From: Candidatus Thorarchaeota archaeon
GTDB lineage: Archaea; Asgardarchaeota; Thorarchaeia; Thorarchaeales; Thorarchaeaceae
Assembly (NCBI GenBank): GCA_048884965.1
Contig: JBHLQH010000006.1
Span: 1 to 64,000, forward strand
Length of the DNA: 64,000 bases
Reading direction: 5' to 3'
This document shows positions 2,326-18,957 of this stretch, in pieces. Numbering within the stretch: the stretch's first letter is position 1; each line of letters starts with the position of its first letter. A program made the position numbers and the translations under genes. The notes beneath the pieces were generated by a model. That model was given only the letters and a program-made list of their open reading frames with translations. It made no database searches and was not told where the DNA came from.

Positions 2326-2765
2326 AGACCAGAGGCATGTTCAGAATATATCAATGTCGAAGGTGCAGGAACATCGGATTTGCCGCGGTTGAAACTGAGG
2401 AAGACGAAGCTCGTTGTAGTCTTTGTAATGGCATGATACTTCACGAGCAAGGCACTCTCTATGCCGCAACAATCGATGAAGCACGAGAGATAATGACCGA
2501 CCTGGTAGTAAGCACAAGATTAGAAGCAAAGAAGGTCGGTTCCTCGCGAGGGATAGGTCTAAAGAAACGGGTCCTAAATATCGTCGAGGCGATCATAGAA
2601 ATCAATCGTGGCAGACCTGCTTCAATTGAACAGGTCTTCCGAGAGTGCAGCGAGGCAGGAATCGATCTTGGCAGAGCCTCTCATTTTGTCAATCAACTCA
2701 AGAGTGAGGGCTTGATCGCAGAAATCGCTGGTGGACTTGTTATAAATGATGGAGGAATGCTCTGA
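2322..2765 (+). CDS. Zn-ribbon + C-terminal winged-helix protein (DUF1922/DUF5817-like)
   Basis: CRRC...CSLC, then wHTH-like IEQVFRECSEAGIDLGRASHFVNQLKSEGLI; alternative start ATG 2337. Confidence 0.65.
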   Translation: MKTRGMFRIYQCRRCRNIGFAAVETEEDEARCSLCNGMILHEQGTLYAATIDEAREIMTDLVVSTRLEAKKVGSSRGIGLKKRVLNIVEAIIEINRGRPASIEQVFRECSEAGIDLGRASHFVNQLKSEGLIAEIAGGLVINDGGML

Positions 2766-3383
2766 GTGTCATCCAGCTCTCGCTATATTCAGATTCCCCA
2801 TGACACTCCTAATAGAAGCTCAATTGCCCTTGTGAATCTCATCATGAGACATACGACCACACGACTGACGGTTATTCAGATGGCTGATCACGAGCCTGAT
2901 CCGGAGCTCTTCGTTGTGACATCCGTGTTCTGGCGTGATACTGATCGACCTCTACTTGCACAACTACCAAAGATTCTCTCTTACCTTGAGACTATGAGAG
3001 GGACTCGAGGAGTACCAAGCAAAGTCTATCTTGATAGTGATGAGGGTCTCCAACTATACATTCCAACTTCAACAAGAGCATCAGAGATTCCTGCTGCGTC
3101 AAAGGACGCTGTAAAATTCCTGCGAACTCTGATCGATTCGACTTGTGAATTTGTCCATACTACTGCAAAAGAGGTAGAAGAGACCTTCTGGTCCATCGCC
3201 ATGAAACGAGGATATAGTCCAGAGATAGTTGATCGGATAGCTACTGCTGCAAAAGGGTACACTTCCTCGTCCAATGTGCAGAGCTTCAACGACCTCTTGC
3301 AACGTTACTTCTCTATTAGATTTAGGATTCATACTGCTGAGTCGACTTTACATTTGGAGGATATGAATTGGCAGAGAGCATAG
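2766..3383 (+). CDS. Hypothetical protein (operon gene 5)
   Basis: 205-aa ORF, GTG start with GGAGGA SD, abuts upstream stop. Confidence 0.75.
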   Translation: MSSSSRYIQIPHDTPNRSSIALVNLIMRHTTTRLTVIQMADHEPDPELFVVTSVFWRDTDRPLLAQLPKILSYLETMRGTRGVPSKVYLDSDEGLQLYIPTSTRASEIPAASKDAVKFLRTLIDSTCEFVHTTAKEVEETFWSIAMKRGYSPEIVDRIATAAKGYTSSSNVQSFNDLLQRYFSIRFRIHTAESTLHLEDMNWQRA

Positions 3384-5332
3384 TAGACCCGTTGTCATGG
3401 TTCCCATATGAGCCTCGTCCCCAACAGGACAAGGCAGTGGTCCTAGCAGCTAGGACCTTCAATGAGAGAACCGTGGGTCTACTATCTGCTGATTGTGGAG
3501 TCGGGAAGACTATTGCCTCACTCTCTGGGTATCTTGCGGTAAGAGGGTCTGATCCCGACTCTCGGCTCTTTGTCCTGACTCGCACACATTCACAATCCAA
3601 AGTTTTCGAAGAAGAGCTAGAGGTCTTAAAATCGAGCGTTCCTCAGAGTGATATTCCTTTGACTGCTACAAGTATGGTGTCTCGAATCCATGTGTGTCCA
3701 ATCCGCCATCGGATGGATACTGATTCATCAATGGGATTCATGCGTGGGTGTGCCATGCTAATACGATCGGGTCGATGTGCCTACTACTGGAATTTCTACA
3801 AGCGTCAGGGTGATGAAGGAACTCCGATAATCAGGGAAAGCGCACGAGCCATCGTGACAGATCTCCTAGATGGCGGAGTTGTAAATCGAGAAAAAGTAGA
3901 ATCTCTTGGGGAGGATGGTGGTATCTGTCCCTATGAAGCTCTGAGATGGTGTGCCAGGAAGAGTCGAGTGGTTATTGGTCCCTACTCCTATCTCTTCAAA
4001 GAACGTATCCGAACAGCTCTTCTTTCGAGTCTCGGACAGCATTTGGCAGATGCTGATCTTCTCATCGATGAAGCACATAATCTTCCTGAGCATGTCTTGT
4101 CATCTGAAGGAGCAATCCTTGCAGGTGAGGATTTGCAATGGCTACGGGATAACAAATCCACTGTTCGGAAGGAAACTGGAGTAAGCTGGGTTGGAGAGGC
4201 TATCGACTTCCTTTGGGAGACTCTGATGGTCGCATTGGACAAGCTGAGTATAAAGAAGAATGAAGTTGTCTTGAACAAATGGCAAGTACTTCCTAGGTTT
4301 GTAGATCCTGCTCTCATTCATATACTCATGGAGAAGACCCTCATTCCCACTGGGGATGATAGCATCCCAACTGAGACTCCCTTGGACCGATTGATAGAAT
4401 TCCTGTATGCAGGACTTCGTTCTCGAGAGAGCGATGATTGGCATATAACAGCGGAGCTTGCACCGCGATGGACGACAGAAGTTCGTATCTCTGATGGTTC
4501 ACTCAGAATTCGTCCATTGAATGCTGCGGGTTTGGTGGCTCCAGTTCTCCGTGGTGCACGCGCGGCTCTTCTTATGTCTGGCACGTTCCGACCAACACAA
4601 CTCTACGCAGGTTTAATGGGTGTCAAAGGTGCTCTTTCAGAGGACCTTGGTAGCCCGTATCCGAAGGCTTCCCGCCTTGTTCTTCTTGATCGCGAGATCT
4701 CAACAAAATACACCAATCGGACTCCAACTCTTTGGCGTGCAATTGCTGAACGTATTGAAACTGCATTAGTGGCTACTCCTGCAGAGAAGACTGCGCTAAT
4801 AGCATTCTCCAGCTATGAGGTCATGGAACAGGTACTTAGTTACAATATCGATTGTGGTTTTCGAGAGCGTTTGGTTGAAGATAGAGATGCACGGATAGAG
4901 GACCTCAAGGAACAAGTTGATGAAGGACCAAAAGCTGTTTTCCTCGTATATGGGGGGAAGTTCAGCGAGGGTGTTGACTTGGTCGCTGCTGGTAGATCAC
5001 AAGTGGATCTCATAATTGGAGTTGGGATTCCCTTTAGCCCTCCCACAAGTTATCAGAAATCTCTACAAGAATGGTACGAAAGGAGATTCGGGGAAGGTGC
5101 AGGTTATTATTACTCATCCGTGATTCCTTCGGTGCGTAAAGTAGTCCAGCTAGTAGGACGATTACGAAGGTCTCCTGAGGATCGGGGTGTTGTTATTTTA
5201 CTTGATTTACGATTCGAGAAATTCGTCTCAATGTTCGGGGACGATATTGTGTCAGACCTCTGGCCTTACAGAGGTATAGATGAAATGAGGGAGGCGATTT
5301 CAAGCTTCCTAGAAATGCGGGGTGGTAGATGA
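3368..5332 (+). CDS. XPD/Rad3/DinG-family Fe-S SF2 DNA helicase
   Basis: Q motif YEPRPQQ, Walker A ADCGVGKT, RTHSQ, four Fe-S cysteines (VCPI, RGC, GRCAYY, GICPY), DEAH, MSGT, SEGVD, QLVGRLRRSPEDRG. Confidence 0.92.
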   Translation: MAESIVDPLSWFPYEPRPQQDKAVVLAARTFNERTVGLLSADCGVGKTIASLSGYLAVRGSDPDSRLFVLTRTHSQSKVFEEELEVLKSSVPQSDIPLTATSMVSRIHVCPIRHRMDTDSSMGFMRGCAMLIRSGRCAYYWNFYKRQGDEGTPIIRESARAIVTDLLDGGVVNREKVESLGEDGGICPYEALRWCARKSRVVIGPYSYLFKERIRTALLSSLGQHLADADLLIDEAHNLPEHVLSSEGAILAGEDLQWLRDNKSTVRKETGVSWVGEAIDFLWETLMVALDKLSIKKNEVVLNKWQVLPRFVDPALIHILMEKTLIPTGDDSIPTETPLDRLIEFLYAGLRSRESDDWHITAELAPRWTTEVRISDGSLRIRPLNAAGLVAPVLRGARAALLMSGTFRPTQLYAGLMGVKGALSEDLGSPYPKASRLVLLDREISTKYTNRTPTLWRAIAERIETALVATPAEKTALIAFSSYEVMEQVLSYNIDCGFRERLVEDRDARIEDLKEQVDEGPKAVFLVYGGKFSEGVDLVAAGRSQVDLIIGVGIPFSPPTSYQKSLQEWYERRFGEGAGYYYSSVIPSVRKVVQLVGRLRRSPEDRGVVILLDLRFEKFVSMFGDDIVSDLWPYRGIDEMREAISSFLEMRGGR

Positions 5333-5333
5333 A

Positions 5334-5531
5334 ATGGATTTGAAACATGGAGCGATAATCATAGCTGCAGGGCTAACATGGTCCTTGTATCTACTTGGTC
5401 AAATAGCAATATCATCAGCTGTAGGACTTAGCACGATACTTTGGATGGTGTTTGCCGTTAGCTGCACGTTGGGAAGTAAGAATGAGAATGAACAGAGTAT
5501 CAATGCTATCGCAGAGAGGGATATTTTGTGA
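5334..5531 (+). CDS. Small 2-TM membrane protein (pilin-sized)
   Basis: ~65 aa with two hydrophobic segments; ATG 5334 follows GGTGG SD, 1 nt after helicase stop; overlaps next start. Confidence 0.65.
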   Translation: MDLKHGAIIIAAGLTWSLYLLGQIAISSAVGLSTILWMVFAVSCTLGSKNENEQSINAIAERDIL

Positions 5532-6130
5532 AAGTGTCAGAGTCTCTCAATCTACAATGGATGCTGCCATCTTCGTTCGCTGCGGCATGGGGCATTAGTT
5601 TCGCCCTTCAGCAGTCCATCGAGGGGCTTGTACTATCAATCGCAGGAATGGCATCTCTACTAGTTGCCATCTATGCATATACTAGAGTTGACTCAGGCAT
5701 CAAATTGTATTGGGATGATTCTCGACACGTTCTATCAATTATCAGAAGGTGGAAGGTTGAGGTCACTGCACTCAGGCTCTTTCAGAGTGTACCCTTAGGA
5801 ATAGATCTGAGTCACTCAGCCAATAAAGTGCTCTCGTCTATGAGGTCGCGATATCAGGGAGAACCAGATGGGACTCTTCAGTGGGTGGTATGCCGTCCTT
5901 TAGGATCATCAAAGACCAGAGTTGGCTTTATGGTATCACGTCAAGGGACAAGACTGCCTACTGGTATTCGCAGGATGGAATTACTTTCTGATATGGTGCT
6001 AGAGGATGCCTTCGTCTTGGAGAGTGCGATGCGAGCCGCATATCCTCACACACCAATCGTCGATGCTTCTGTTGAGGATATTGAATTGATAAGAAGGGGA
6101 GGTATAGAACCTATTGAAACCGTTTCATAA
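5528..6130 (+). CDS. Membrane protein, two N-terminal TM helices + soluble domain
   Basis: 200 aa; hydrophobic FAAAWGISFAL and LVLSIAGMASLLVAIYAY segments. Confidence 0.75.
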   Translation: MKVSESLNLQWMLPSSFAAAWGISFALQQSIEGLVLSIAGMASLLVAIYAYTRVDSGIKLYWDDSRHVLSIIRRWKVEVTALRLFQSVPLGIDLSHSANKVLSSMRSRYQGEPDGTLQWVVCRPLGSSKTRVGFMVSRQGTRLPTGIRRMELLSDMVLEDAFVLESAMRAAYPHTPIVDASVEDIELIRRGGIEPIETVS

Positions 6131-6392
6131 TACAAGTAGGATTCAGATCCCTCCTACGCTATCAGTCGAATACCTGACTAGTAGCCTTGAGATAGGGCAT
6201 GGCTACAGCTGGACTAGGCTACTCTCTTCTCCTAAACTGATCATTCATGGAAAGCCCCCTTTGGGGGATCTTCCTGAAGTTCTAATCTATGGCAAGAATA
6301 TATTGCTGGAAAATGGTGACGAATACCTTCTACGTTTCCGAAGAATGCTTCAGGCTTTGGCGCAACAAAGTCAGATAGTGGGGGGAAGATAA
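6114..6392 (+). CDS. Hypothetical protein
   Basis: 92 aa; TTG start with GGGAGGT SD; fills the gap between coupled genes. Confidence 0.6.
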   Translation: MKPFHNTSRIQIPPTLSVEYLTSSLEIGHGYSWTRLLSSPKLIIHGKPPLGDLPEVLIYGKNILLENGDEYLLRFRRMLQALAQQSQIVGGR

Positions 6393-6393
6393 G

Positions 6394-8730
6394 ATGGCAA
6401 AAGGTCGAGGGTATGTACTTGGTTCAGAACCTCCTCAGGATCCAATGGCTGAAATGAACAGAACTACCTATTCAGTAACGAGCACTACAGAAATCAAGTG
6501 GAATGATAGGGAAGTCCGAGAATCGTGGACTCAGGCAATTGCGATTGCAATTACATCTTTCATTCTTGTCTTCTTTGCCCCTCAACTTATGATAGCTGTT
6601 TCGCTTCTTGTAGGTATTGGATTCTATGTGTTCTCCAGCCTAATGAAACGCCAGGAAGTGCTTGACCCCCAGAGTGGATGGACTGAGCGACCTCAACCTG
6701 ATTTTGATCTCGTAGAAGAGGAGAAGTTCCTCAGATACCCAAGAGATGAGAAGTACTCTTTGACCGGAATTGAGCTAATGGCTGCCGCTCCGAAACTACC
6801 TGGAAATTTGGCGGCATTGATAAGGGCATTGCCCACCTCGGATGGTTTCTCTCTCTCAGTCACGCTTCGCCTTGGTGATGAGGGCAAAATCATTGAGGAT
6901 AGGAATGTTTCAAGTTCTATTGAAGCGTATCTACGAACTAGATCAAAAGGCGAACTTGAAACCTATATGGATTTCAGATCTGGTCTTTGGATTGCCAAGG
7001 TCAACTACTTTGGATTGGTCCGGGACGAAACAGGTGTTCGATTCCATGAGTCTTCTGTGAAAGGTTCAATTCCCTCTAAGGGTTGGAAGCGAATCAAGCC
7101 TTCAGACATGATGACGCGTTTGAAGGAATATCATGGTGGACAATCCCGCCCAGCATACTATGCGGTTGGACAAGAGCTATCAGAGTGGCTCGTACAGCTA
7201 AGATCTGAACTTGCCAATGAAGTTGGTACGAACGTTCCTGGACAGTTTGTTGTGGATATCAGAAGTCGTCCTGCAGATTTAGTACTCGGCAACATCCTAA
7301 ATCCCGACACTCTTCAGGTAGGGCCAACAACCGGTCTCTCCTTTGAGGATATTTCGAATGGAGTGCTAATGTGTGGAGGAACTCGTCATGGGCGAAGAGA
7401 TCTACTTGCGTTACTCGCGAAATCCATTGTCGATGCTGGTAAACGTGTGATGGTACTCAGTTCTGATCCCGAAGCTCTTGCACTAGTAAACCTTCATGAT
7501 AGCGGAATTGGGTTAACATTAGGTAAGGACTTCATTCTGAATCCAATTGATGCAGAGGACGTTCACAGAACAGTCTATGTTCCCAAGCTCCTGAGAGCGC
7601 TAGAAACACTGGCCGATAAGTCATTGACTTCAGCGGCAGATTTGGAAGTAGCACTCGGGCGAGCAGTAGCGCTCCCACACTCTACAGTTGCAGATGTAAA
7701 ATTCGAACCTGATGCAGATGTGATGACAGATGATGAGATTGTAAAGGCAAACATGCATCCTGTAAAACTGTCACTTTGGGGTTTGGAGGGTCTCCGGAAG
7801 CTGTATGAAGGATCTGGCGCAAGAGCATTCTATGGTACACAGACCACCTCGATGTCATCCATCGCTTCATTGCCACTTAGTGTGCTCATCACGAATCTTC
7901 GTGATATCCCTCTAGACATCTTCGCATTCGATCTATTAATGATGAAGCTATCAGGCATGAAACACGATAAGGATCTTGTTATCATCATTGATGATCCCGA
8001 CAGTCTACGTGTTGCCAATAGCAGTTACTCTCGAAGATCACTTTGGACAGACTCCCTCATCAAGGAGTTATCAGAGGTCGCATCTGTTATAGTGAGTATA
8101 GATCAACCACATATGCTCTCATCAGGTGTCAAGAACGAGCTGAGTTCTTGTGTCTCGCTTAGGCTAAGAGACGAGAAGGATATTGCCTCTGTTAGCACGA
8201 GACTTGCATTGAGTGTAATTGGATCAGGTCTTCATAGTAAGGCAAGATGGTCTGCTCGAGAATCCTCATTCCTTCGAACAATGGATGACGGAATAGCATT
8301 ACTTGTTCATAATGAGGTAGAAACAGCTCAACCTATCAAGTTGCACGCTACTCCCGAGTTGCGAAGTCCATCGAATGATGTCCTGCAGGAACGAATCGCA
8401 AGAAGTCTCAAACCTGAAAGCACTTCCAAAACACTTCCAACAGCAAATCTTCTATCTCTCAGCTCAACACGAGATGGTGACCTTCCACTGAAGATACTGA
8501 AACTAATCGAGCGATATGAACCTCTGACTGAAGAGGCAATAAGAAGATTCATTCAAGCTTCTGGTAGTGATGGAGATGTTGAGGGCATAATAATTCGTCT
8601 GAAAGAATCAAGCTTGATTCTGGAGGGTCATGAGTCTCATAGCGGTGTATCATACAAGAATTATCGGTTGACGATGAAGGGAAATGTTGCATTACGAAAG
8701 GCGACAAAAGAGGTGACAGTACCAGAATGA
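6394..8730 (+). CDS. Membrane-anchored VirB4/HerA/FtsK-like P-loop protein with degenerate Walker motifs and C-terminal wHTH
   Basis: Two N-terminal TMs; VLMCGGTRHGRR at Walker A position; KRVMVLSSDPE; FILNPID; LVIIIDDP at Walker B; IDQPHMLSSGVKNELSSCVSLRL; terminal wHTH ending YRLTMKG. Confidence 0.65.
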   Translation: MAKGRGYVLGSEPPQDPMAEMNRTTYSVTSTTEIKWNDREVRESWTQAIAIAITSFILVFFAPQLMIAVSLLVGIGFYVFSSLMKRQEVLDPQSGWTERPQPDFDLVEEEKFLRYPRDEKYSLTGIELMAAAPKLPGNLAALIRALPTSDGFSLSVTLRLGDEGKIIEDRNVSSSIEAYLRTRSKGELETYMDFRSGLWIAKVNYFGLVRDETGVRFHESSVKGSIPSKGWKRIKPSDMMTRLKEYHGGQSRPAYYAVGQELSEWLVQLRSELANEVGTNVPGQFVVDIRSRPADLVLGNILNPDTLQVGPTTGLSFEDISNGVLMCGGTRHGRRDLLALLAKSIVDAGKRVMVLSSDPEALALVNLHDSGIGLTLGKDFILNPIDAEDVHRTVYVPKLLRALETLADKSLTSAADLEVALGRAVALPHSTVADVKFEPDADVMTDDEIVKANMHPVKLSLWGLEGLRKLYEGSGARAFYGTQTTSMSSIASLPLSVLITNLRDIPLDIFAFDLLMMKLSGMKHDKDLVIIIDDPDSLRVANSSYSRRSLWTDSLIKELSEVASVIVSIDQPHMLSSGVKNELSSCVSLRLRDEKDIASVSTRLALSVIGSGLHSKARWSARESSFLRTMDDGIALLVHNEVETAQPIKLHATPELRSPSNDVLQERIARSLKPESTSKTLPTANLLSLSSTRDGDLPLKILKLIERYEPLTEEAIRRFIQASGSDGDVEGIIIRLKESSLILEGHESHSGVSYKNYRLTMKGNVALRKATKEVTVPE

Positions 8731-10922
8731 CCGCCACTCTTGATATTCCTTCTCAAGTTCATAGGATTCTGGAGCAGGTAGGCCTAGAGCCAAGAGGTGT
8801 ACAATCCGAGTCTATTGAGAAAGGTCTCCTCGATGGTGGTAGTATTCTGGTGTGTAGCCCCACAGGGTCTGGGAAGACATTGGTTGGTGAGATTGCTTTG
8901 TTGCGCTCGGTGACATCGGGGAAACGAGGTCTCTATCTCACCCCCTTGAGAGCATTGGCAGATCAGATTTTCGATACACTCAAAGAACGCTACACACCAC
9001 TGGGCATCAGAATTGGTATCTCTACAGGAGATTTCCAGACAGACGGCTCAGCTCTTGAGGAGTATGACATCATTGTATCTACCTATGAGAGAGCTGATTC
9101 ACTTCTAAGGCATAAATCCCCATGGATGGAACAAGTAGCTACATTAGTTGTGGATGAGATACAGACAATTTCTGAAGGGAACCGTGGTGCCCGATTAGAG
9201 TCTGTCATCATACGTTTTAAGCGAATAGTTGAGAATCTACAGATAATTGCCCTTTCTGCTACGATAGGGTTCCCAGAACAGCTTGCTGACTGGTTAGGTT
9301 GCAGACTGGTTGAGTCTATTGACCGACCAGTCCCACTACTATGCAATGTCATAGCGAAACCAAACAAAGAGGCAGCTGTCCTGAAGTATGTTATGACGAC
9401 AATTCAAAAAGATGGGCAAGTGCTAGTATTCCATAGGACTCGGAGAGAGGCTGAAGCAGAAGCTCGGCGGCTAGCAGAACATGTGGGAAAGCAACTCACT
9501 CAGAATGAGCGAGAGTATCTCGTTTCCGAGCTTGATTCTATTGAGCATTGGAATGCAAATATCCCAAAGGATTTGCGCTCTCTGCTTCATAATGGGATTG
9601 CATATCACCATGCAGGTCTTGGAGTCGGAGCGAGAAAGCTGGTCGAACATCTATTCAAGACTGGTAGAATAAGAGCAATATCTGCAACTACAACCTTATC
9701 ATCAGGAATGAATCTTCCAGCTCGTACTGTAGTAATTGCAAATGCTCGCTCTCCAATCGACTATAGACATATCATGCCGCCAAATCAAATGCACCAGATG
9801 TTAGGACGAGCTGGTCGGCCCGGTCTTGATTCTCGTGGTTATGGGGTTATTATTGCTGATAGTCGCGGACAGGCAGATGATATCATTCAGAAATCGTTTC
9901 TAAAACGAAGAGATGACACTCTGAACAAGGATATCCTCGAACCAAAATATGAGGCAGTGACCAGTGCATTCAGATCACCTGATGTCCTAGAGGAACAGCT
10001 GCTCGTGGCTCTTGATATGCTAAATGAAGCTAGCTTGGAAGAAATAGAGAATGGGATTTTTGGTGAAACTTACTTACTACACCAAGCAGTTCGTAACACC
10101 TATTCTCCAATGAGATTGATTTACTTAGATGCCATAGATGCTATGTCTGCTTTGGAATGTCACGCTCTTTCGGACACAATCCGCGCTGCCAGAGGTGGTG
10201 TCTTAGGAACGGTCAGAATTCGGGAGGTAAATGACTCTGTAATCGGAGGCATGGTTGCACAAAAAGGAGGTAACAATGCAACTTGCCGGTTTTCCACTCG
10301 CACCAGGCGAAGTGGAACTATTGAAGGGCCGATGTGCTCCTGTGGCCGCCCTATCGATGGGTCCGGCATCCTCTGCCCTCATCTTGTTACTCTAGGAATG
10401 ATGGCGTCAAAGGAGCATTCAGAAGTCGCCGACTATATTATTCCTCTCGCCTTAGGAGAATCAAGTCCGTCAGGTAGTCTGATTAGACTTCAACTAATAG
10501 AAGGCGCAGAAGATGGTCGGGTCAAGATAACACGTCTCGGACGACTCGTTTCCAGATTGTATCTACGTCCTGGTACAGCAAGAGAGCTTCTTGCTATGGT
10601 CCCTTTTGTTAAGGATACAGTGCAGCTAGTTTCGATGCTGAAGCATCTGGTGTCTCTTGAAAGCAATCAGACTATTGATGATACATTTGAGATGATGATA
10701 GGATTAGCAGCATCAACGAGAATGCATATGGTGGATATGGCTGAGGAACTCAATCTTTCTATTGGCGATCTCTCGTCACTATTGGAACGTTCTCGGTGGC
10801 TACTCTACTCAATTGCAGCGATTGCACGAGAAGGGAATCTGAGCTTTGTTTCCGAGCATGCTCAGCAACTATGGGAAGATATCGATTCACGGTTTTCAGG
10901 TGATGACAATGGCAATAACTGA
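8727..10922 (+). CDS. Hel308/Ski2-like SF2 helicase with inserted SWIM zinc finger
   Basis: SPTGSGKT, PLRALA, TYER, DEIQ, LSAT, HHAGL, TTTLSSGMNLPA, QMLGRAGRPG; CSC-x10-CPH; TRLGRLVSRLYL. Confidence 0.9.
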   Translation: MTATLDIPSQVHRILEQVGLEPRGVQSESIEKGLLDGGSILVCSPTGSGKTLVGEIALLRSVTSGKRGLYLTPLRALADQIFDTLKERYTPLGIRIGISTGDFQTDGSALEEYDIIVSTYERADSLLRHKSPWMEQVATLVVDEIQTISEGNRGARLESVIIRFKRIVENLQIIALSATIGFPEQLADWLGCRLVESIDRPVPLLCNVIAKPNKEAAVLKYVMTTIQKDGQVLVFHRTRREAEAEARRLAEHVGKQLTQNEREYLVSELDSIEHWNANIPKDLRSLLHNGIAYHHAGLGVGARKLVEHLFKTGRIRAISATTTLSSGMNLPARTVVIANARSPIDYRHIMPPNQMHQMLGRAGRPGLDSRGYGVIIADSRGQADDIIQKSFLKRRDDTLNKDILEPKYEAVTSAFRSPDVLEEQLLVALDMLNEASLEEIENGIFGETYLLHQAVRNTYSPMRLIYLDAIDAMSALECHALSDTIRAARGGVLGTVRIREVNDSVIGGMVAQKGGNNATCRFSTRTRRSGTIEGPMCSCGRPIDGSGILCPHLVTLGMMASKEHSEVADYIIPLALGESSPSGSLIRLQLIEGAEDGRVKITRLGRLVSRLYLRPGTARELLAMVPFVKDTVQLVSMLKHLVSLESNQTIDDTFEMMIGLAASTRMHMVDMAEELNLSIGDLSSLLERSRWLLYSIAAIAREGNLSFVSEHAQQLWEDIDSRFSGDDNGNN

Positions 10923-12561
10923 AGGAACTGCAGTAAAGGATGAACAAGAAGAAAAGGTGGCCTCTGAAGAAACTGAGGATGTCACAACACCTACAAGAGA
11001 CCATGACTACGATGTGCTGAGAGCACTAATAGCAACAGGACATCACGTTTGCGAATATCCAAATGGATTGGTACTTGGTGTACATATTGAGGGTATCCCA
11101 GGTCGACGTGGAGTACATGTGGATTCTGTCTATGTACTTGACTTGCGTCGTGCGTCTTTTGGAACTGCACGTCTTGCAATGCAGGCAGCCGTTTTGGAAA
11201 CGATAAATCGCGATATGTGTTCTGTATTGCAGGATATTGAAATGGATTACACTTTGACCACTGTGTCAAAACGGACAACGAAGGGAAAACTCATTCTTCC
11301 CATGCTCAAAGCAAATCAGAGTCACCCTGGAACGATGGTACATAACACACGAACAGTCTATGTTGTCACTGGGAATGAACGTCCAAAACTGGATCTTTCG
11401 TGGCTTACTGAGCCAAGCAGAGTCCTCCATGCAGACGATTTCCTCCTTGCAAGACGCTCTGATATGAGGTCATTCCTCTCTGAGATGCAAAATAGGGTTC
11501 TTCTGGATAAATGGGAACTTCTTGGCGATAGTATTAGGCAAGGCTGGTTTGGATTATTATCGTTGGTTTTTGCATCAATTAGTGCGTTCTCACTAATAGC
11601 TGCGCTGATGGTTCCAGAGGGAATTATTCTCATTCCAACACTTGCGACTGCATTAGGTGGGATTTTGGGTTTGTGGATGATTGATCGTTCAAGGAAGAAT
11701 TTGGATGAGTTCAATGTACTATTACGTGAGGAGGAGGCAAAGACCAACAGAGTTGGTGATGGCCATCGTATTGACGCTAGTATCTCTGAGAACGAGGAGA
11801 AGCTCAAATTACAGAGAGATTTAGGATTCGTAATATCTCCTCTTCTGGCATCTGTCGCTGGATCTATTAGCATTGGGGATTATGATGATGCCGTTTCATC
11901 AGCATGCTTGGTCCTTGATGAATGCGTTCGGTTCTCTCAAGCTGATGGGATTCCAATGGGCGATGAAGGTCTTGCCAAGTTCATCGGTCTTTTTGAAAGT
12001 TTCAATGCTGAATTCGATGAAGCAGAACTGTCGATTTGCTATGCCGGCTTGACCAATCACCTAGTTTCACCTTTGGGTGAGGAGGAGATTCTAAGGCAGT
12101 GTACAGTATTGTCAGATTCACTCTATAATGTTGGCATTCTGAAACCTACAGTAAAGGATAGAATCGACGATCTAATGAACCAGAGAGCGTTGAAAGAGAA
12201 TCTCAGGTATCTTGATCACGCAATTGATGTAGATAATGAATCTCATGAAGAAGGAGGTGACGGAGATGATGACTCTTGGTTCACTGATGAAATGCTCCAA
12301 GAGAATTTAGCTTCAAAAGAAGAATTCGATTCTATTCCAGTTTTAATCGCATACACTCATCCAGATGATTTGGACGAAGACGATATGGAGCAGACCGCAA
12401 AGCAGCTTGATGATCTGTCTGTTGCTGCAACTCAAACCTCTCCTCCTGATGATGTTGAGATGACTGCCAGTGATGTAGTCAATTCCGCTCATTCCAACAA
12501 GGGTTCGAGAAATTTGGATGACAAAGAGGATTCATTGGAGGATGATATTCCTGCTCGATAA
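10909..12561 (+). CDS. Membrane protein with central 2-TM hairpin and acidic C-terminal tail
   Basis: ATG 10909 after AGGTGA SD (track starts at 10846); two hydrophobic helices; D/E-rich last ~110 aa. Confidence 0.75.
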   Translation: MAITEGTAVKDEQEEKVASEETEDVTTPTRDHDYDVLRALIATGHHVCEYPNGLVLGVHIEGIPGRRGVHVDSVYVLDLRRASFGTARLAMQAAVLETINRDMCSVLQDIEMDYTLTTVSKRTTKGKLILPMLKANQSHPGTMVHNTRTVYVVTGNERPKLDLSWLTEPSRVLHADDFLLARRSDMRSFLSEMQNRVLLDKWELLGDSIRQGWFGLLSLVFASISAFSLIAALMVPEGIILIPTLATALGGILGLWMIDRSRKNLDEFNVLLREEEAKTNRVGDGHRIDASISENEEKLKLQRDLGFVISPLLASVAGSISIGDYDDAVSSACLVLDECVRFSQADGIPMGDEGLAKFIGLFESFNAEFDEAELSICYAGLTNHLVSPLGEEEILRQCTVLSDSLYNVGILKPTVKDRIDDLMNQRALKENLRYLDHAIDVDNESHEEGGDGDDDSWFTDEMLQENLASKEEFDSIPVLIAYTHPDDLDEDDMEQTAKQLDDLSVAATQTSPPDDVEMTASDVVNSAHSNKGSRNLDDKEDSLEDDIPAR

Positions 12562-13219
12562 GCAGTTTATTGACACAATCATGAAATCGGGTGGTATGCT
12601 ACATGTTTCTGGAGCGGCAGGTTCAGGAAAAACGCTCTTCGCTTCCATCCTTGCTTCTATCCTCTCGGAGAAAGGATATGTAGATTGGATTTCTACGGAT
12701 GGTAAGGCTGGATTCGTCAAACATATTCGAAGCAATCTCGAACATTATGGTGGAATTTCTTCGAATATATCTGTGACTAGGGTGATGGGATATGATGAAA
12801 CTTTACAGGTAATTCTATCAATGGACCAGCGTTTGAAGGAGAACACCCGACTTATCGTAATTGATTCAATAACCAGAGTTTTGGATATGTCACGAAACGA
12901 TCCTCTACTTTGGGGTCGCACGCTATTCGAGGATGCTTTGCCCACTCTTGCTTCAATCTCAGAAGGCAGGAGAGTGCCTATTGTTCTCATAAGCGAGATT
13001 CGAGAATCACAAGGTGTTCCAAGTGCAGTCTATCATGAGAAGATCCGTAAATGGGCGAAATGGGATCTAGTCTTTGAAAGACCACATGGATTGAATCAGT
13101 CCAAGATTCTTCAGGAAGGTGGAGGAGAAACTTCTCAAATGCAGATAGGCACTCTGCAACTGAATCCTGCCGGTTGGGCTAATCTGACAATTGAAATGAT
13201 ATCGATGGAGGTGCAATAA
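12542..13219 (+). CDS. RadB/Rad51-paralog-like RecA-fold ATPase
   Basis: Walker A GAAGSGKT, WISTDG, Walker B LIVIDSI; no N-terminal HhH; start uncertain (12518/12542). Confidence 0.8.
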   Translation: MIFLLDKQFIDTIMKSGGMLHVSGAAGSGKTLFASILASILSEKGYVDWISTDGKAGFVKHIRSNLEHYGGISSNISVTRVMGYDETLQVILSMDQRLKENTRLIVIDSITRVLDMSRNDPLLWGRTLFEDALPTLASISEGRRVPIVLISEIRESQGVPSAVYHEKIRKWAKWDLVFERPHGLNQSKILQEGGGETSQMQIGTLQLNPAGWANLTIEMISMEVQ

Positions 13220-14199
13220 TGATTGGAGGAGGTATGATTGGGAAGCTGATGAAGTGGGGGATTATGGCGGGTGTAGCCCTCGTAATAGGTACTGAATTGC
13301 TTTCATCTGTTTCATGGGTAGTTGTGAGCATGAGGACAGGTGACTATCTCCCTGTTGCCATAATTTGTGGTTTCACATTGACCTTACAAAGAATATCGTC
13401 AATTCTCAAGACTGACTCAAAGCTGGTCACCATTCTTGTAGATATCCTTGCAGGAGCTTCAATGTTGTATCTATTCTTCGTTGTTCTTATCGGACTCATT
13501 CCTTTTGGTCTTGTTGTAGCTATTGGTGGAGCTGGAGCCTCTCTTCTGCTTTCTATGATAATTCGGGATCCAACATCCATGCGAGAAACTCTCAGGGATT
13601 TGGTTGAATCCGCTGAGGTATATCGTGAAGGAGGTATCTCGCTGAATGGCAATCAAGATTATGTAAGTGGGAAGTACATTGAGAAACTGAATATTTCGAT
13701 TCTCCAGATTCCACATTACTATTTCAACGATGTAGTACGTATCCTTCAGAATCGTCCCATGCTTCCTGTTGCATTATTGCATTTAGAGGATGCTGATTTC
13801 CTATTCGTCCGGCAAAGTGTTGAATTAGATTGGACACGTCAAGTGAAACGTGTATTGCAGGATGAGGGATTAACTCAAATTACTACTGCTACACCTCTTT
13901 TGAAGAAATCACTCCTATTCTTACCTCTAATGGAGGAACAGCACGGATATCCTATGTCAGAATATGCTATAGCAGCCAAGGACGAATCCATTAGCACACT
14001 TTTGGCAACGAAACCATTACGAATGGTCGTATTTCCCAGCTCATGCGGAATAAGAATCGTGGTCCGTAAAGAGAGTATTCTTGGTATTGACCTCTCTCCG
14101 ATTCCTCAACATCATCTACAGCAGATCATCTTAGGCCGAGAGGCCGAGGCAATCAAAACCATTCTTGATACTACGGAGGGAGTCATACCTGCCTATTGA
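13219..14199 (+). CDS. Membrane protein, ~4 N-terminal TM helices + soluble domain
   Basis: 326 aa; hydrophobic first ~115 residues; alternative ATG 13234 after GGAGGAGGT. Confidence 0.75.
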   Translation: MIGGGMIGKLMKWGIMAGVALVIGTELLSSVSWVVVSMRTGDYLPVAIICGFTLTLQRISSILKTDSKLVTILVDILAGASMLYLFFVVLIGLIPFGLVVAIGGAGASLLLSMIIRDPTSMRETLRDLVESAEVYREGGISLNGNQDYVSGKYIEKLNISILQIPHYYFNDVVRILQNRPMLPVALLHLEDADFLFVRQSVELDWTRQVKRVLQDEGLTQITTATPLLKKSLLFLPLMEEQHGYPMSEYAIAAKDESISTLLATKPLRMVVFPSSCGIRIVVRKESILGIDLSPIPQHHLQQIILGREAEAIKTILDTTEGVIPAY

Positions 14200-14911
14200 A
14201 ACAAAGAATCTTGATGAGATTGATGCATTTGACAAGCCGCTATTCAAACTTCATCCCCGCGTGCTTGATGCTGTCATAGGAAAGATCCTCCTTCCATCTC
14301 ATATCAGCGTCCTTCATGGAGAAGAACGCTTTCCTCTTACTGCGATTTCCCATGCTGTCATGATTGGAGCGGGCAAGAACAACAAACACGCGATCTATCT
14401 TGATTCTGGAAGTAACTTCAATCCTCAACTTATTCGAGTCCTTTCTCAGGGTGACGAAGAACATGTCCTAGATCGAATCAAGATTGCAAATCCATTGAGT
14501 CTTGCTGACCTAGAGATGATAATGGAATCAGTAGAGTCCATGGAAAATATCTCTTTGGTAGTCATTGACAGTCTCACCGGAATAATGAACATGAGTGCAG
14601 CTCCTGGAAGTAAAGAACGACAGCGGCAATTATTCAAGACATTGGAAGTACTTCGGAATATAGTACTTAGGTTGAATACTCATCTTCTGTTAACAGACCA
14701 CTCGGCCAAGAACTGGAGAACAGGTCAATCTCGTCCTGTTGGAGGAAATGTTATTGATCATGCTGTTGACAGTGTGATTCAAGTGACCACTCTTCAGGAA
14801 GTTCCTGATGCTGTACGGATAGATGTTGAACGAACTCCCATCACACCAAATCCTGGCGGTGTCATATTGAAGATTGGGCACAAAGGGATAAGGTCGATAA
14901 AATCTCCTTAG
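14165..14911 (+). CDS. RecA/RadB-fold protein with inactivated Walker A
   Basis: LDAVIG, HGEERFPLT at the P-loop position, IYLDSGSNFNP, Walker B LVVIDSL, RQRQL, RPVGGNVIDH; true start probably slightly downstream. Confidence 0.78.
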   Translation: MILRRESYLPIETKNLDEIDAFDKPLFKLHPRVLDAVIGKILLPSHISVLHGEERFPLTAISHAVMIGAGKNNKHAIYLDSGSNFNPQLIRVLSQGDEEHVLDRIKIANPLSLADLEMIMESVESMENISLVVIDSLTGIMNMSAAPGSKERQRQLFKTLEVLRNIVLRLNTHLLLTDHSAKNWRTGQSRPVGGNVIDHAVDSVIQVTTLQEVPDAVRIDVERTPITPNPGGVILKIGHKGIRSIKSP

Positions 14912-14917
14912 GAGGCT

Positions 14918-15916
14918 ATGTTGTTGGGTGTTAAGAATTGGAATGACCTAATCCCATGGAGATGGATTTCAGCGGATGAGCTCAAACCACGAGTTATCGC
15001 CATTGATGCACCAAACTATCTTACTCGCAGACATCAAGCATATGCCTATGGCACAAAGCAAAGCATTGAGCGAATTCCTACTTCTCATTTCTCAGCGTCT
15101 CTAGGAATAATCAAATCATTTCTATCAAAAGGTTTTCTTCCAGTGTTTGTTTTTGATGGCCCCCCGGAGGTGTTGAAGCGTCCTTCAAACCCCCATCTCA
15201 TCATAAAATCCTCAGAATTGTATAATCGCTACAGAAGTACGAAGAATCTGTTTGATACTCATATCGCTGAACCCCTCGCTAATAGCGCAGGGTTGTTCTG
15301 GTATTTCTCAGTTCTTCACATCAAAGAACTGTGCTCAGCGGCTGGCATTCCAGCGGTAACTGCTGCAAGCGAAGCCGAGATGACAGCAGCAGTTCTTGTT
15401 AAAGATGGGCTTGCAGGAACTACTCTCTCTAATGACGTAGATGCACTGCTATTTGGCAGTCCTCATGTGACCCGGACAATTCAACTAGGTAAGAATCTGA
15501 TTGAACGATGTTCTGCCGTGGATTTGGAATCAAACACCAAGCTCGATTTGAACAGATTACGTGATCTCGCCATTCTCTGTGGATGTGACTTTCATAATGG
15601 TGTGAAGGGAGTAGGACCCAGAAAAGGATCCGTTCTACTTCATAGATTTGGAAATCTCGAAAGAGTGTTGAAATCTAAAGCATATACCTCCTCGGAGATT
15701 GAGGAACTTCTGATTGCTCGTGAAGTATTCGAGGAACCAAGCTATATCTCCACGAAAGGTATGAATCTATCTTTATGTGCTCCAATACCTCATCAGCTGA
15801 TCGAGATTCTAGAACCTGTGCTGGGAAGAGAGCATGCAGAAACTCAAGCAAATGTCATTGTGAAACTCTGGAAGTCATTTGGAACTCATCAATCCACACT
15901 AGAACAGTGGGTGTAA
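14918..15916 (+). CDS. fen1: FEN1/XPG-family structure-specific nuclease (paralog) with PIP box
   Basis: IAIDA, FVFDG, SEAE, SNDVDALLFG, GCDF, GVKGVGP; C-terminal QSTLEQWV. Confidence 0.88.
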   Translation: MLLGVKNWNDLIPWRWISADELKPRVIAIDAPNYLTRRHQAYAYGTKQSIERIPTSHFSASLGIIKSFLSKGFLPVFVFDGPPEVLKRPSNPHLIIKSSELYNRYRSTKNLFDTHIAEPLANSAGLFWYFSVLHIKELCSAAGIPAVTAASEAEMTAAVLVKDGLAGTTLSNDVDALLFGSPHVTRTIQLGKNLIERCSAVDLESNTKLDLNRLRDLAILCGCDFHNGVKGVGPRKGSVLLHRFGNLERVLKSKAYTSSEIEELLIAREVFEEPSYISTKGMNLSLCAPIPHQLIEILEPVLGREHAETQANVIVKLWKSFGTHQSTLEQWV

Positions 15917-15920
15917 ATAT

Positions 15921-16100
15921 ATGACTCAGAAGGATCGACCCGAATTTCCTTGCATTGAATGTGGGGACTACACTTACTATGGATGTTCCCGTCAGATTTG
16001 TGGCCGATTCATTGTATGGAGAAAGTATCTAGAACTATCTGAAGTTAGGATGTCCAAGGGTCTCTCCATCTCGTCATTTCTGAATCGAAAAGCTTGCTAG
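15921..16100 (+). CDS. Unannotated 59-aa Cys4 metal-binding mini-protein
   Basis: Translated by hand: MTQKDRPEFPCIECGDYTYYGCSRQICGRFIVWRKYLELSEVRMSKGLSISSFLNRKAC; starts 4 nt after the fen stop, GGGTG upstream; just below the ORF-track size cutoff. Confidence 0.55.
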   Translation: MTQKDRPEFPCIECGDYTYYGCSRQICGRFIVWRKYLELSEVRMSKGLSISSFLNRKAC

Positions 16101-18045
16101 GCATGGTGAACATATAGGAAATCTCTTGCTTGATAGACCCGAGATGGATTTCATAGTCAGTCCATTTTTCAAGAATCTCGTTATTCAAGACTGCAAGCAG
16201 CAAACCTCCTCGACCAGATGGAGCATATATCTTTGCAGCTAACGAACCTTCTTTGCTCCAGTAGAGATGGATGAACGGTGAAATCTCTATTAGCCATTTC
16301 TTCACTCTGTTCAATGCTCGCTTATCAATTGAAGGAATCAATATCAATGCTCCTTCTGAAAGACCTGAGTATTCTAGGGATGGATAATAGAGGGGAATCA
16401 TTGCAGAAGCTTTTGTGACCCGGTCAACGATTTGAGCAATCAGTCTGCTGTCCATTTCTATCATTGACAGTATGAGATTTCGATTTCCAGGAGACCCTCT
16501 GTTCAGCAATAGATGGGCCATAAGAAGCACATCATCTGGAGTGAGATTGATACTTTTACCCTTGATACTTGACGTGTCAAAGTATGTCCAGTACTTCTCT
16601 TCACTTGGCGAAGATCGCTCCCAAGGTCTAAAGTTCCACAATCGCTTTTCAGTGTCATAAAGGTCGAGTCGGTATGATATGAGTTCCTCTTCCGTTATGA
16701 AATCACTAGCACCCAGCTCAAGATTCTTAGGTCCCCCGCTATCACGTGGCTCAAGATGAATAGTTGCCCCTTCAATATTTGCGAAAGTGGGGAATTCATC
16801 CTGCATCTCTCTAGTAATGATGGTCTTGAATTTGACCTCAAGTGAGCGTAACTCTGCAAGCTCATTCGTTTCTTCCCTAGTCCTATTCTCGGATTGTTGG
16901 AGATCTATTTTTGATTCGATTATTCTGTCCAAGGAAGAAAGTCCTTTTTGCCGGAGAAGGATTCTATATGCTTTCTCGAGGTCTTCGTCTGATATATGTG
17001 GATTCGACAATGCTTCTTTGAATTCAGTGGGGATGATAATATGGTGTCGGTCTATATCTCCCCATTTGTATCTCCTCCTTTCCTCTATCATCTCATCATA
17101 TGGTCTACAATCAAAACGATGGATTAGTCCTGGTGATGTTTTGTACTTTCTAGCCTTCTCCGTTATTATCCATCTGTGCTGCAGGTCCAACATCTTGGGG
17201 ATTAGAATAGCATGTTCTGTCAGGACCAAGTCCAATAGTGATGCAACATACCGAGCTTTACTAGGGGAGAATCCTGTAGCTTTAGTTACGTCTTGATATG
17301 ATATTGATTGGAATGATTTAGACCTATTGAGTTCCATGCATATTTTCCTGAGTGGCTCATATCCTCCAATTCCAATTTCATGCTTCGATTTTGTGAGAAA
17401 CTCCGGTTGATCCTTGATCATCACACTATCTGGTCGCGAAACCAATTGAGGTACTCTTGAAGGATATTGTCCCGCGTTAGGTCCGTGAAGAATCTCAAGC
17501 CAGTTGAGGCGAACTCCTATCTTTGAAGAAATCTCGTTGACAATGAATAGTGCTGAAGTTATATGGTCGATATCCTGTTGATAGAGAAGCCATTTATGAT
17601 TCCTGGGCAGCCTGCCAAGCATGAGTCTTGAAAGGAAATAGTGGACTCCGGTTTCATATGTCATTGCGTCAGAGTCGAATGAGGGAAGCAGAGATGAGAT
17701 CTGTTTTGAGAATGTATTGCCTTCTACTGCTAAAGAAAGATTTGAGAAATCGCCAAGCATTCTGGTGAAATCGGATTCCTTCACAGATTCCTTCGGAAGC
17801 GGAGCCAGCTTGCTTCGCTTCTCAATACTGTCTGGATGAAGTGTTGGTTCTTTTCCTTGATACTTGAGATCCTGCAACGACTGACGAAGAACAAGCTCAT
17901 CGCTCACGAACCTGTTCAAGACACTGTAATATCTCTTGGTAGCAAGAACCACCTTTACTACGCACTCCTGTATATTCAAAGATTCTCGTTGCACAAATAT
18001 CCTACAATTCAATATATACAAGGCTCTTATATCTGTATCACTCAT
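16045..18045 (-). CDS. Large hypothetical protein with probable tandem Lrp/AsnC-like (HTH + RAM) modules
   Basis: 666 aa; HTH-like SYQDVTKATGFSPSKARY followed by IPKMLDL; second unit LTPDDVLLM...YYPSLEYSGL. Confidence 0.5.
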   Translation of the reverse strand: MSDTDIRALYILNCRIFVQRESLNIQECVVKVVLATKRYYSVLNRFVSDELVLRQSLQDLKYQGKEPTLHPDSIEKRSKLAPLPKESVKESDFTRMLGDFSNLSLAVEGNTFSKQISSLLPSFDSDAMTYETGVHYFLSRLMLGRLPRNHKWLLYQQDIDHITSALFIVNEISSKIGVRLNWLEILHGPNAGQYPSRVPQLVSRPDSVMIKDQPEFLTKSKHEIGIGGYEPLRKICMELNRSKSFQSISYQDVTKATGFSPSKARYVASLLDLVLTEHAILIPKMLDLQHRWIITEKARKYKTSPGLIHRFDCRPYDEMIEERRRYKWGDIDRHHIIIPTEFKEALSNPHISDEDLEKAYRILLRQKGLSSLDRIIESKIDLQQSENRTREETNELAELRSLEVKFKTIITREMQDEFPTFANIEGATIHLEPRDSGGPKNLELGASDFITEEELISYRLDLYDTEKRLWNFRPWERSSPSEEKYWTYFDTSSIKGKSINLTPDDVLLMAHLLLNRGSPGNRNLILSMIEMDSRLIAQIVDRVTKASAMIPLYYPSLEYSGLSEGALILIPSIDKRALNRVKKWLIEISPFIHLYWSKEGSLAAKIYAPSGRGGLLLAVLNNEILEKWTDYEIHLGSIKQEISYMFTMPSKLFDSEMTRWRDPWTS

Positions 18046-18226: not shown

Positions 18227-18826
18227 ATGCAACAGACTGACATAGTGTTCCTAGTATTAGCGAATCTATACTTCGCGTTTCAATGGACCCCTATCATCAT
18301 GGTGGTCATTACAGTAATACGAGGGGCATTATTGTTGAAAGGTCAGAAAAGGGAATTTGAGGATTGGTTCCGCAACCCTTGGATGACCTTTCTTTCCATA
18401 TTCTTTCTACCTGGTACTCTGATCTATACAGGAATTCGATACGTGGTTTCTAAGATTGCTGGAATCAAAATCGCTCGAGTTAGTGGCACCTCCACCTATG
18501 GTGAACTGAATATGTTCATCGAGGTAGAACGTCCCCCTCGTGTCGGAGTGTTGATCGTTGCTCTGTATATGAACATCATGCTTTCGGTGTTTGTAGCTTT
18601 GACCTTGCTGGTCCTTCCCCTAGTGCTGATTCTCGATTTAGCTTGGACCGGGATTTGCATCTATGTTTCATTGGGCGTCCTGTATAACAGCTCACTACGA
18701 AGTGGAGATGCTGGACTTGTACTCTCGTCATTGCGTCAAAAACCGAGATCTGGTGCAATAGAGCTCATAGTTGTCATTGTCAGCATTGCTGTGCTTTACT
18801 GGCAAACATTGGGGGTACCGCTATGA
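18227..18826 (+). CDS. Multi-pass membrane protein
   Basis: 199 aa, ~5 hydrophobic segments, GAGGTGA SD. Confidence 0.8.
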   Translation: MQQTDIVFLVLANLYFAFQWTPIIMVVITVIRGALLLKGQKREFEDWFRNPWMTFLSIFFLPGTLIYTGIRYVVSKIAGIKIARVSGTSTYGELNMFIEVERPPRVGVLIVALYMNIMLSVFVALTLLVLPLVLILDLAWTGICIYVSLGVLYNSSLRSGDAGLVLSSLRQKPRSGAIELIVVIVSIAVLYWQTLGVPL

Positions 18827-18957
18827 GCACAGAACAAAGCCAAGTCTGGGAGGGAGCTATCCCCTTCGTTGATGTATATCAACATGTCAATCCCGACACT
18901 CACGCCCCTGCTTCCCTCAGACCTGGTAACCCTGTTGGAGAGTGCAGGAATAATTGA
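18823..18957 (+). CDS. Unannotated 44-aa small protein, translationally coupled on both sides
   Basis: MSTEQSQVWEGAIPFVDVYQHVNPDTHAPASLRPGNPVGECRNN; ATGA overlap upstream, TTGA overlap downstream; GGGGGT upstream. Confidence 0.5.
   Translation: MSTEQSQVWEGAIPFVDVYQHVNPDTHAPASLRPGNPVGECRNN

Follow-up and report, generated by a model that had tools for sequence, protein, structure and literature searches.

Did the partnership of a Hel308-type helicase, a SWIM zinc finger, and RecA-fold paralogs, which is seen in eukaryotic recombination, begin in archaea? Hel308/HELQ, SWIM proteins, and RAD51 paralogs all have recognized roles in the control of recombination. The question is raised by an operon near the start of contig JBHLQH010000006.1 (contig C6) of a Candidatus Thorarchaeota archaeon (assembly GCA_048884965.1), which is part of a 4.09-Mb metagenome-assembled archaeal genome. 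We analyzed the first 64,000 nucleotides of this contig (the window). A first-pass annotation had proposed that positions 8727–14911 encode a Hel308 helicase fused to a SWIM finger, along with an active and an inactive recombinase paralog, and that these are an ancestor-like form of the eukaryotic mediators. We found that the observation was confirmed and that the interpretation was partly supported. The operon is a vertically inherited second, divergent recombination set. With moderate confidence, we favor the explanation that it is an envelope-associated accessory module for its own recombinase (RadA2) and that it came to resemble HELQ and Shu by independent duplication rather than as their ancestor.

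Positions 97–15916 of the window hold 15 co-directional genes, all overlapping or abutting. The segment 8727–14911 corresponds to five of these (g10–g14), in the distal half of the operon. Upstream, the gene order is two unknowns, g03, g04, another unknown, g06 (an XPD-like helicase), small membrane proteins, and g09. From g09 through g15, the genes are joined by overlapping or abutting starts and stops. For example, the start of g11 overlaps the stop of the helicase gene g10. Also, g12 and g14 show translational coupling, in each case to a gene for a membrane protein, and g13 is coupled to both. The first-pass annotation had left out the conserved membrane-protein genes at 10909–12561 and 13219–14199. 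The features that we discuss are:

1261–2325, + strand: g03, RadA2, a full-length second recombinase (Pfam Rad51 at 170 bits, plus HHH_5)
2322–2765, + strand: g04, a zinc-ribbon and winged helix-turn-helix (wHTH) protein of 147 amino acids (in the alignment, CxxC...CxxC and then a wHTH-like C-terminal half)
8727–10922, + strand: g10, a Hel308-paralog superfamily 2 (SF2) helicase of 731 amino acids (NCBIfam Hel308, Pfam DEAD and Helicase_C, and Hjm/Hel308 in PDB)
10209–10415, + strand: the SWIM zinc-finger module within the winged helix of g10 (ligands at nucleotides 10335–10382)
10909–12561, + strand: g11, a membrane protein (by hydropathy) of 550 amino acids from the ATG
12518–13219, + strand: g12, a small RadB-family ATPase of 233 amino acids (Walker A GAAGSGKT at 12611–12634; Walker B at D116)
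13219–14199, + strand: g13, a membrane protein of 326 amino acids with four N-terminal transmembrane (TM) helices (from an AlphaFold2 model)
14165–14911, + strand: g14, a RadA/Rad51-core paralog without the N-terminal domain (Pfam Rad51; GEERFPLT at 14318–14341)
14918–15916, + strand: g15, a FEN1 paralog that closes the operon and lies beyond 8727–14911 but is linked to it (NCBIfam fen_arch at 130 bits, with a cut-off of 352)

The same genome encodes a housekeeping RadA on contig C11 (314 bits), a canonical Hel308 on contig C7 (617 bits), a housekeeping FEN1 on contig C8 (433 bits), and, on contig C59, a further gene that is RadB-like (145 bits). Because these copies are found elsewhere in the genome, the operon represents a second, fast-evolving set. 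Some Asgard groups are reported to have two clades of RadA, with Rad51 and DMC1 outside all of them (PMC12722695), which fits RadA2 being an Asgard-internal duplicate.

Across 19 loci from the window's own GTDB family, the full operon is syntenic. The same is true, to the extent of the contigs, of 36 species-representative loci, nearly all of them from Thorarchaeota/Promethearchaeota. The same convergent gene (16045–18045) flanks the operon. The fixed synteny and the shared flanking gene argue for vertical inheritance and against mobility, and a search of viral contigs found no relatives. (A scan for sigma-70 promoters and terminators turned up nothing, and the sigma-70 consensus does not apply to archaea.) Overall, these results support the functional linkage of the operon's genes.

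The helicase matches the NCBIfam model for Hel308 across residues 4–392 (E = 2.6e-99), with a score of 333 bits against an equivalog cut-off of 1200, so we consider g10 to be a divergent paralog and not an orthologue of Hel308. It is above the cut-offs for Pfam's DEAD and Helicase_C, and a profile search of PDB identified Hjm and Hel308 as the closest solved single-cassette chains (E ~1e-106). Like archaeal Hel308/Hjm and metazoan HELQ (PDB 2p6r, 2zj2, 2va8, and 9b15), g10 has two RecA domains that carry all of the Ski2-like helicase motifs, followed by a winged helix and then a ratchet domain. The wing motif (T-x-L-G-x-x-V-x-x-L-Y-L) aligns with Brr2, and the ratchet (domain 4, PF21280) was matched in 13 of 15 g10 orthologues (best E = 6e-7). 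Unlike Hel308 and HELQ, g10 has a SWIM insert of about 140 residues that splits the winged helix, and the Thorarchaeota proteins lack the helix-hairpin-helix (HhH) domain 5. In a BLAST comparison with the canonical Hel308 from contig C7 (34% identity), residues 34–445 and 589–706 of g10 aligned, which leaves residues ~446–588 as the insert. The canonical protein keeps domain 5, which is the autoinhibitory brake, while g10 stops about 16 residues past the ratchet match. Some SWIM-Hel308 proteins from Baldr-, Heimdall-, and unnamed lineages (P0028, P0031, and P0044) retain a C-terminal domain 5, so its loss in Thorarchaeota is secondary. As an aside, codon 111 of one helicase orthologue from the same genus (G004:C119; L027:9571–11748) is an in-frame stop (..LLS*YDIL..), which is either a sequencing error or the mark of a recent pseudogene.

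The putative zinc ligands within the insert are C537-x-C539-x10-C550-x-H552, which fits the SWIM pattern of CxCxnCxH (we required n of roughly 6–25; here n = 10). All four ligands are invariant in 33 helicases from Thorarchaeota. In a 41-sequence Asgard alignment of the insert, to which 17 helicases from outside Thorarchaeota had been added, they are the only invariant columns. The canonical Hel308 of the same genome does not contain CxC..CxH. Pfam's SWIM model (PF04434) matched 17 of the 41 inserts (best E = 9e-8), and the window's own copy is not significant by itself. An AlphaFold2 model of 10173–10463 had a mean predicted local distance difference test (pLDDT) score of 90.3 and shows four strands (residues 13–19, 23–29, 35–44, and 50–55) and then a helix (69–81) that starts at the C-x-H. 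When we compared this model to 48,161 PDB chains, the top structural match was the SWIM-bearing region of ZSWIM8, with a modest Z score of 5.0; Foldseek gave no significant match. A profile of the insert did not find any chain among PDB sequences, nor did it find Shu2/SWS1 at E up to 10. Shu2/SWS1 are also missing from both lists of fold matches, which does not exclude a relationship. We accept the module as a SWIM finger, and the proposed fusion of Hel308 to SWIM, within one operon, is confirmed.

This kind of helicase recurs across the Asgard archaea. A profile of SWIM plus ratchet matched only 46 proteins among 1.84 billion representatives, and within the phylum, 89 of 400 genomes had a match, over many families. 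Besides Thorarchaeota, SWIM-Hel308 is present in Heimdallarchaeota, Baldrarchaeia, Hermodarchaeia, Jordarchaeum, and 'Asgardarchaeia', and all of the full-length matches from these lineages (700–885 amino acids) have CxCxnCxH at the same place. We scanned 18 neighborhoods from outside Thorarchaeota (about 10 kb around the helicase) with hidden Markov models of each of the operon's genes. A g12-like small ATPase was near SWIM-Hel308 in 9 of the 18 loci, a RadA2-like gene in 8, a FEN1-like gene in 7, g09-like and g04-like genes in 6 each, and XPD-like and g11-like genes in 3 each. These counts are lower bounds because several of the contigs are only 4–8 kb. In three of the loci (L132, L133, and L137), the order is helicase, g04, and the g12-like gene; g04 also adjoins a g12-like gene in L128, and the L126 and L143 loci contain it as well. 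It is a candidate core subunit, albeit one without an assigned family. From the neighbor counts, we conclude that the conserved core is SWIM-Hel308, g04, the RadB-family ATPase, RadA2, and FEN1, and not a pair of active and inactive paralogs.

The active paralog, g12, lacks an N-terminal HhH domain and has an intact P-loop, as the first-pass annotation had stated. The 39 orthologues conserve its Walker A motif, the aspartate of Walker B, and an S-E-x-R motif. The best match for g12 in NCBIfam is RadB (TIGR02237, E = 9.7e-10), with 38.7 bits versus a cut-off of 172.4, and g12 has no match to Rad51 in Pfam (PF08423). A profile of the Asgard-wide g12 family matches RadB from Thermococcus (2cvf), with an alignment that spans both proteins from end to end (E = 3.2e-28). 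Its matches to S. solfataricus RadA (8e-17), RAD51C (6e-14), and RAD51 (~1e-13) are weaker, and those to RAD51D (6e-12), XRCC3 (2e-11), RAD51B (~1e-10), and Rad57 (~1e-10) are weaker still. The eukaryotic RAD51 paralogs (1e-10 to 1e-14) rank below both RadB and RadA, and no orthology to them is indicated by the profile E-values. We dropped an apparent affinity of g12 for KaiC because the alignment was confined to the P-loop. Like archaeal RadB and other paralogs of RadA (aRadC and Ral from Sulfolobus), g12 is a RecA core of about 230 amino acids with intact Walker A and Walker B motifs. What sets it apart from RadB is a score below the equivalog cut-off, the presence in the same genome of another gene (on contig C59) that is closer to RadB, its linkage to SWIM-Hel308, and the membrane-protein genes on either side of it. 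In another locus (L130:3544–4413, from G029), the small RecA-fold paralog that adjoins SWIM-Hel308 has an N-terminal zinc ribbon with a double CxxC, fused to the ATPase core.

The other paralog, g14, matches Rad51 in Pfam (PF08423) at 41.7 bits, with a gathering cut-off of 22, and scores 56.9 bits against RadB from NCBIfam (cut-off 172.4). The best matches of its profile are RadA/Rad51/DMC1 (about 1e-15), ahead of RAD51D (1e-7) and RadB (3e-7). An hhalign comparison shows that g12 and g14 are homologs along their whole length (probability of 98%). In a quick tree, g12 groups with its partners from outside Thorarchaeota and with the RadB-like gene, and g14 and its orthologue from G025 (see below) group with RadA and RadA2; this tree has long branches and we used it only beside the profile E-values. 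By these comparisons, g12 is nearest to RadB and g14 is nearest to RadA, and neither shows affinity for a particular eukaryotic paralog. Both are placed among recombinase relatives and not with KaiC-like or other ATPases from outside homologous recombination.

The P-loop of g14 is dead exactly where this had been reported. GEERFPLT aligns with GEFGSGKT of RadA from P. furiosus, and the functional GxxGxGKT is missing. All 19 of the 19 g14 orthologues keep the degenerate pattern (h-G-x-[ED]-R-x-P-L-T instead of G-x-x-G-x-G-K-T). As g14 also keeps Walker B (D135), an L1-like RQR, and a GGN..H motif, we conclude that it is a pseudo-ATPase under selection and not a decaying gene. Outside Thorarchaeota, all 11 of the 11 small paralogs keep GxxxxGK[ST]. 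The genome G025, which is from a sister family in the same order, is informative: its genes run g12-like, g13-like four-TM protein, a paralog of 223 amino acids, and FEN1. The 223-residue protein is the positional orthologue of g14, and its Walker A reads GGPGTGKT. From this gene order and this motif, we conclude that the second paralog and g13 arrived at roughly the level of the order, before the Thorarchaeaceae-level family lost Walker A. The comparison shows the addition of g14 and g13 in the order that contains Thorarchaeaceae, followed by a late, family-specific loss of Walker A from g14. An active and an inactive paralog are both encoded in this operon, but this pair is not the conserved core. 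Elsewhere in the same genome, a third small RadA-like paralog (G000:C5:74897–75508; locus L004:1258–2148, minus strand) also has a degenerate Walker A (LFYGERSLHND), so the ATP site was lost more than once in this lineage.

How might this second set work? We suggest that SWIM-Hel308 would move along or remodel single-stranded DNA (ssDNA) and D-loops, and that g12 would be an ATP-dependent mediator acting on filaments of RadA2. The helicase, g12, and g04 would assist RadA2 in mediator or D-loop-processing roles, and the FEN1 paralog would trim the resulting flaps. With its Walker A lost, g14 may be a non-catalytic structural partner. Finally, g11 and g13 would hold the paralogs at the membrane, within a larger envelope-associated machine for handling DNA.

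Several points weigh against the explanation of the operon as a RadA2 accessory module. First, the chromosome of Thorarchaeota bin8 (CP070658.1, locus L085) has g10–g15 in order, but g01–g09 are all missing from the 10 kb upstream. Searching the whole record, which is ~77% complete by marker genes, gave no g09 and no match of RadA2 grade. This may be a natural half-operon, in which case RadA2, the presumed client, would be dispensable, or the assembly may be faulty. Second, many of the contigs from outside Thorarchaeota are short, and the gene order varies among those loci. Third, the mediator activity is predicted from homology and gene linkage, and to our knowledge the mechanism of RadB is not settled. 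Fourth, given the membrane proteins and the HerA-like g09, the main job of the operon could be DNA transport instead of filament mediation.

This last point leads to the alternative that survives best, which is that the operon encodes a machine for DNA import or exchange, similar to Ced/Ted in its logic, with the helicase and paralogs at its cytoplasmic end: membrane proteins and a giant surface protein would pass DNA through the envelope, SWIM-Hel308 would be the motor that pulls in ssDNA, and membrane-tethered paralogs would load RadA2 on the incoming DNA. We consider this possible but unlikely. By hydropathy, g07, g09, g11, and g13 are membrane proteins. g11 begins with a conserved soluble domain, and this is followed by hydrophobic helices (near residues 233–279 and 325–344 of the 571-residue open reading frame (ORF)), a helical C-terminal domain, and an acidic tail. 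It is conserved in 33 loci, and its relatives adjoin SWIM-Hel308 in L125, L132, and L133. The 550-residue form, from the ATG at 10909, is present in the ESM Atlas; we did not detect any relatives of g11 in Pfam, PDB, or the ESM Atlas. We also looked in g11 for the FxxA motif (BRC-like) that binds recombinases, and rejected it because it is not conserved (FGTA in the window and FGK[STG] in the orthologues).

The AlphaFold2 model of g13 (pLDDT 89.5) has four TM helices and a cytosolic alpha/beta domain. We had considered that g13 might be a cryptic RecA-fold paralog, similar to Shu1 or Psy3, and this fold led us to reject the idea. The cytosolic domain weakly matches EccE, from the type VII systems ESX-3 and ESX-5 (Z = 7.8 and 6.8), and the N-terminal domain of TrwK/VirB4 (Z = 6.8). 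These matches would suit DNA import, but all of the structural matches have Z below 8, and Foldseek gave weak matches to ACT-like regulatory domains. The ESM Atlas held no usable match for g13, and its profile found nothing meaningful among PDB sequences.

g09 (6394–8730) is a TM-anchored protein of 778 amino acids with a C-terminal wHTH and no match in Pfam. Its profile matches HerA chains weakly (E = 0.013–0.024). The Walker A position of g09 reads GGTRHGRR, and none of the homologs, from within or outside Thorarchaeota, has GxxxxGK[ST], so no transport ATPase is evident in any of the lineages examined. (Outside Thorarchaeota, two separate ORFs, one of about 280 and one of about 530 amino acids, correspond to g09.) Among the operon's proteins, no transport ATPase or channel was identified, and neither a pilin nor a VirB6-like channel was found.

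In G025, a surface-type protein of 2599 amino acids and a TM protein lie within the operon, between g11 and g12 (L125:4591–12977). Their homologs flank the operon in the window (18227–26744): directly downstream are a multi-TM protein of ~199 amino acids (18227–18826) and a surface-type protein of 2596 amino acids (18954–26744). These surface-type and multi-TM proteins probably belong to the same system as the operon, and the membrane genes and the giant protein point to a cell-envelope machine. A second giant ORF, of 1953 amino acids, is further downstream in the window (46206–52067).

There is a precedent for such a machine, as Ced is a chromosomal, domesticated DNA importer of the conjugation type in Crenarchaeota (PMC9905601). 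Ced/Ted and the Asgard operon share a chromosomal operon of membrane proteins with a HerA/VirB4-like protein, in a context of DNA recombination. In contrast to the Asgard operon, the Ced operons do not include paralogs of RadA, Hel308, XPD, or FEN1. Furthermore, many of the loci from outside Thorarchaeota have the helicase/paralog core without any detectable membrane genes.

The explanation put forward by the first-pass annotation fares less well. It holds that a heterodimer of g12 (active) and g14 (inactive) uses the helicase's SWIM finger as its docking site and is the loader of RadA2, as an ancestor-like form of the Shu and BCDX2–HELQ complexes. The helicase, g12, and g14 all exist and are conserved. 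The eukaryotic interactions that it draws on are documented: HELQ and BCDX2 bind each other and both restrict gene-conversion tracts (PMC13623763), while Shu2/SWS1 are stand-alone SWIM proteins that are bound to Rad51 paralogs, and the SWIM domain of yeast Shu2 touches the paralog Shu1 directly (PMC5727457). Also, SWIM-Hel308 is linked to a RadB-family partner across the Asgard archaea, which are the closest relatives of eukaryotes. On the other hand, the dead subunit is confined to a Thorarchaeaceae-level family, and in other lineages the helicase has just one paralog as its companion, an active one. Within the operon itself, g12 and g14 are separated by g13, which is coupled to both of them. 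We consider a docked heterodimer of ancestral form to be improbable.

The comparison with each of the eukaryotic systems is similarly mixed. The genetic tie of g10 to RecA-family paralogs mirrors the binding of HELQ to BCDX2 (PMC13623763). As in Shu and SWS1–SWSAP1, the operon combines a CxCxnCxH finger with RecA-fold paralogs, and of these g14 has no Walker A. Unlike in Shu and SWS1, the Asgard SWIM is a domain of a helicase and does not stand alone, and its n of 10 is typical of generic SWIM fingers, compared to 59 in Shu2. Likewise, the Asgard paralogs are RadB-like and RadA-like, and not similar to Csm2, Psy3, or SWSAP1, and the dead subunit is found in just one archaeal family. Rad55–Rad57, BCDX2, and CX3 share the logic of RecA-fold subunits with unequal ATP sites that help a recombinase; here, the pairing would be a prediction from the genes.

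The 'ancestor-like' part of the proposal is without support. For the g12 family, archaeal RadB is a far better match than RAD51B/C/D, XRCC3, or Rad57 (by at least eleven orders of magnitude in E-value), g14 is nearest to RadA, the core of the helicase is nearest to archaeal Hel308, and no chain of Shu2/SWS1 was recovered with the SWIM profile. The pairing of helicase and paralogs recalls HELQ and the RAD51 paralogs, and nothing shows common descent; binding of the paralogs by SWIM would be an analogy to the eukaryotic complexes. The likeness to HELQ and Shu is most probably due to convergence. A broader version would make the Asgard module of SWIM-Hel308 and a RadB-family ATPase the source of both the HELQ–RAD51-paralog and the SWS1–SWSAP1 partnerships, with the contact between SWIM and a paralog beginning in the Asgard helicase complex and SWIM splitting off later. 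We think that this is very improbable.

It is just as hard to believe that the operon provides defense against viruses or plasmids, with a Ski2-like helicase (as in Hachiman), a DinG/XPD helicase, and a nuclease. PADLOC does give HamB-type and type IV DinG matches for the two helicases, but we judged these to reflect generic SF2 similarity. Among ten of the operon's proteins, PADLOC matched only these helicases and found no HamA nuclease or other effector. Also, the gene order and the flanking gene are the same family-wide, unlike in patchy defense islands, and the lack of relatives in viral contigs argues against it as well. Lastly, although archaeal repair genes sometimes cluster, an ordinary cluster of housekeeping repair genes without a joint function is barely credible, as it is already contradicted by the conserved synteny: the housekeeping copies are elsewhere, the operon's copies are far below the family cut-offs, the genes overlap tightly, and their linkage is conserved over class-level distances.

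We searched the literature and found no description of the SWIM-Hel308 subfamily of helicases or of this operon. The conserved linkage of SWIM-Hel308 to RadB/RadA-like paralogs in Asgard archaea offers a simple prokaryotic system for asking if SWIM recruits RecA-fold mediators to a helicase. g14 provides a dated case in which a duplicated RecA-fold paralog gave up its ATP site, which is a path that eukaryotic paralogs also took. And the interleaved membrane genes suggest that recombination in these archaea may be coupled to the cell envelope, in a way that has no described counterpart.

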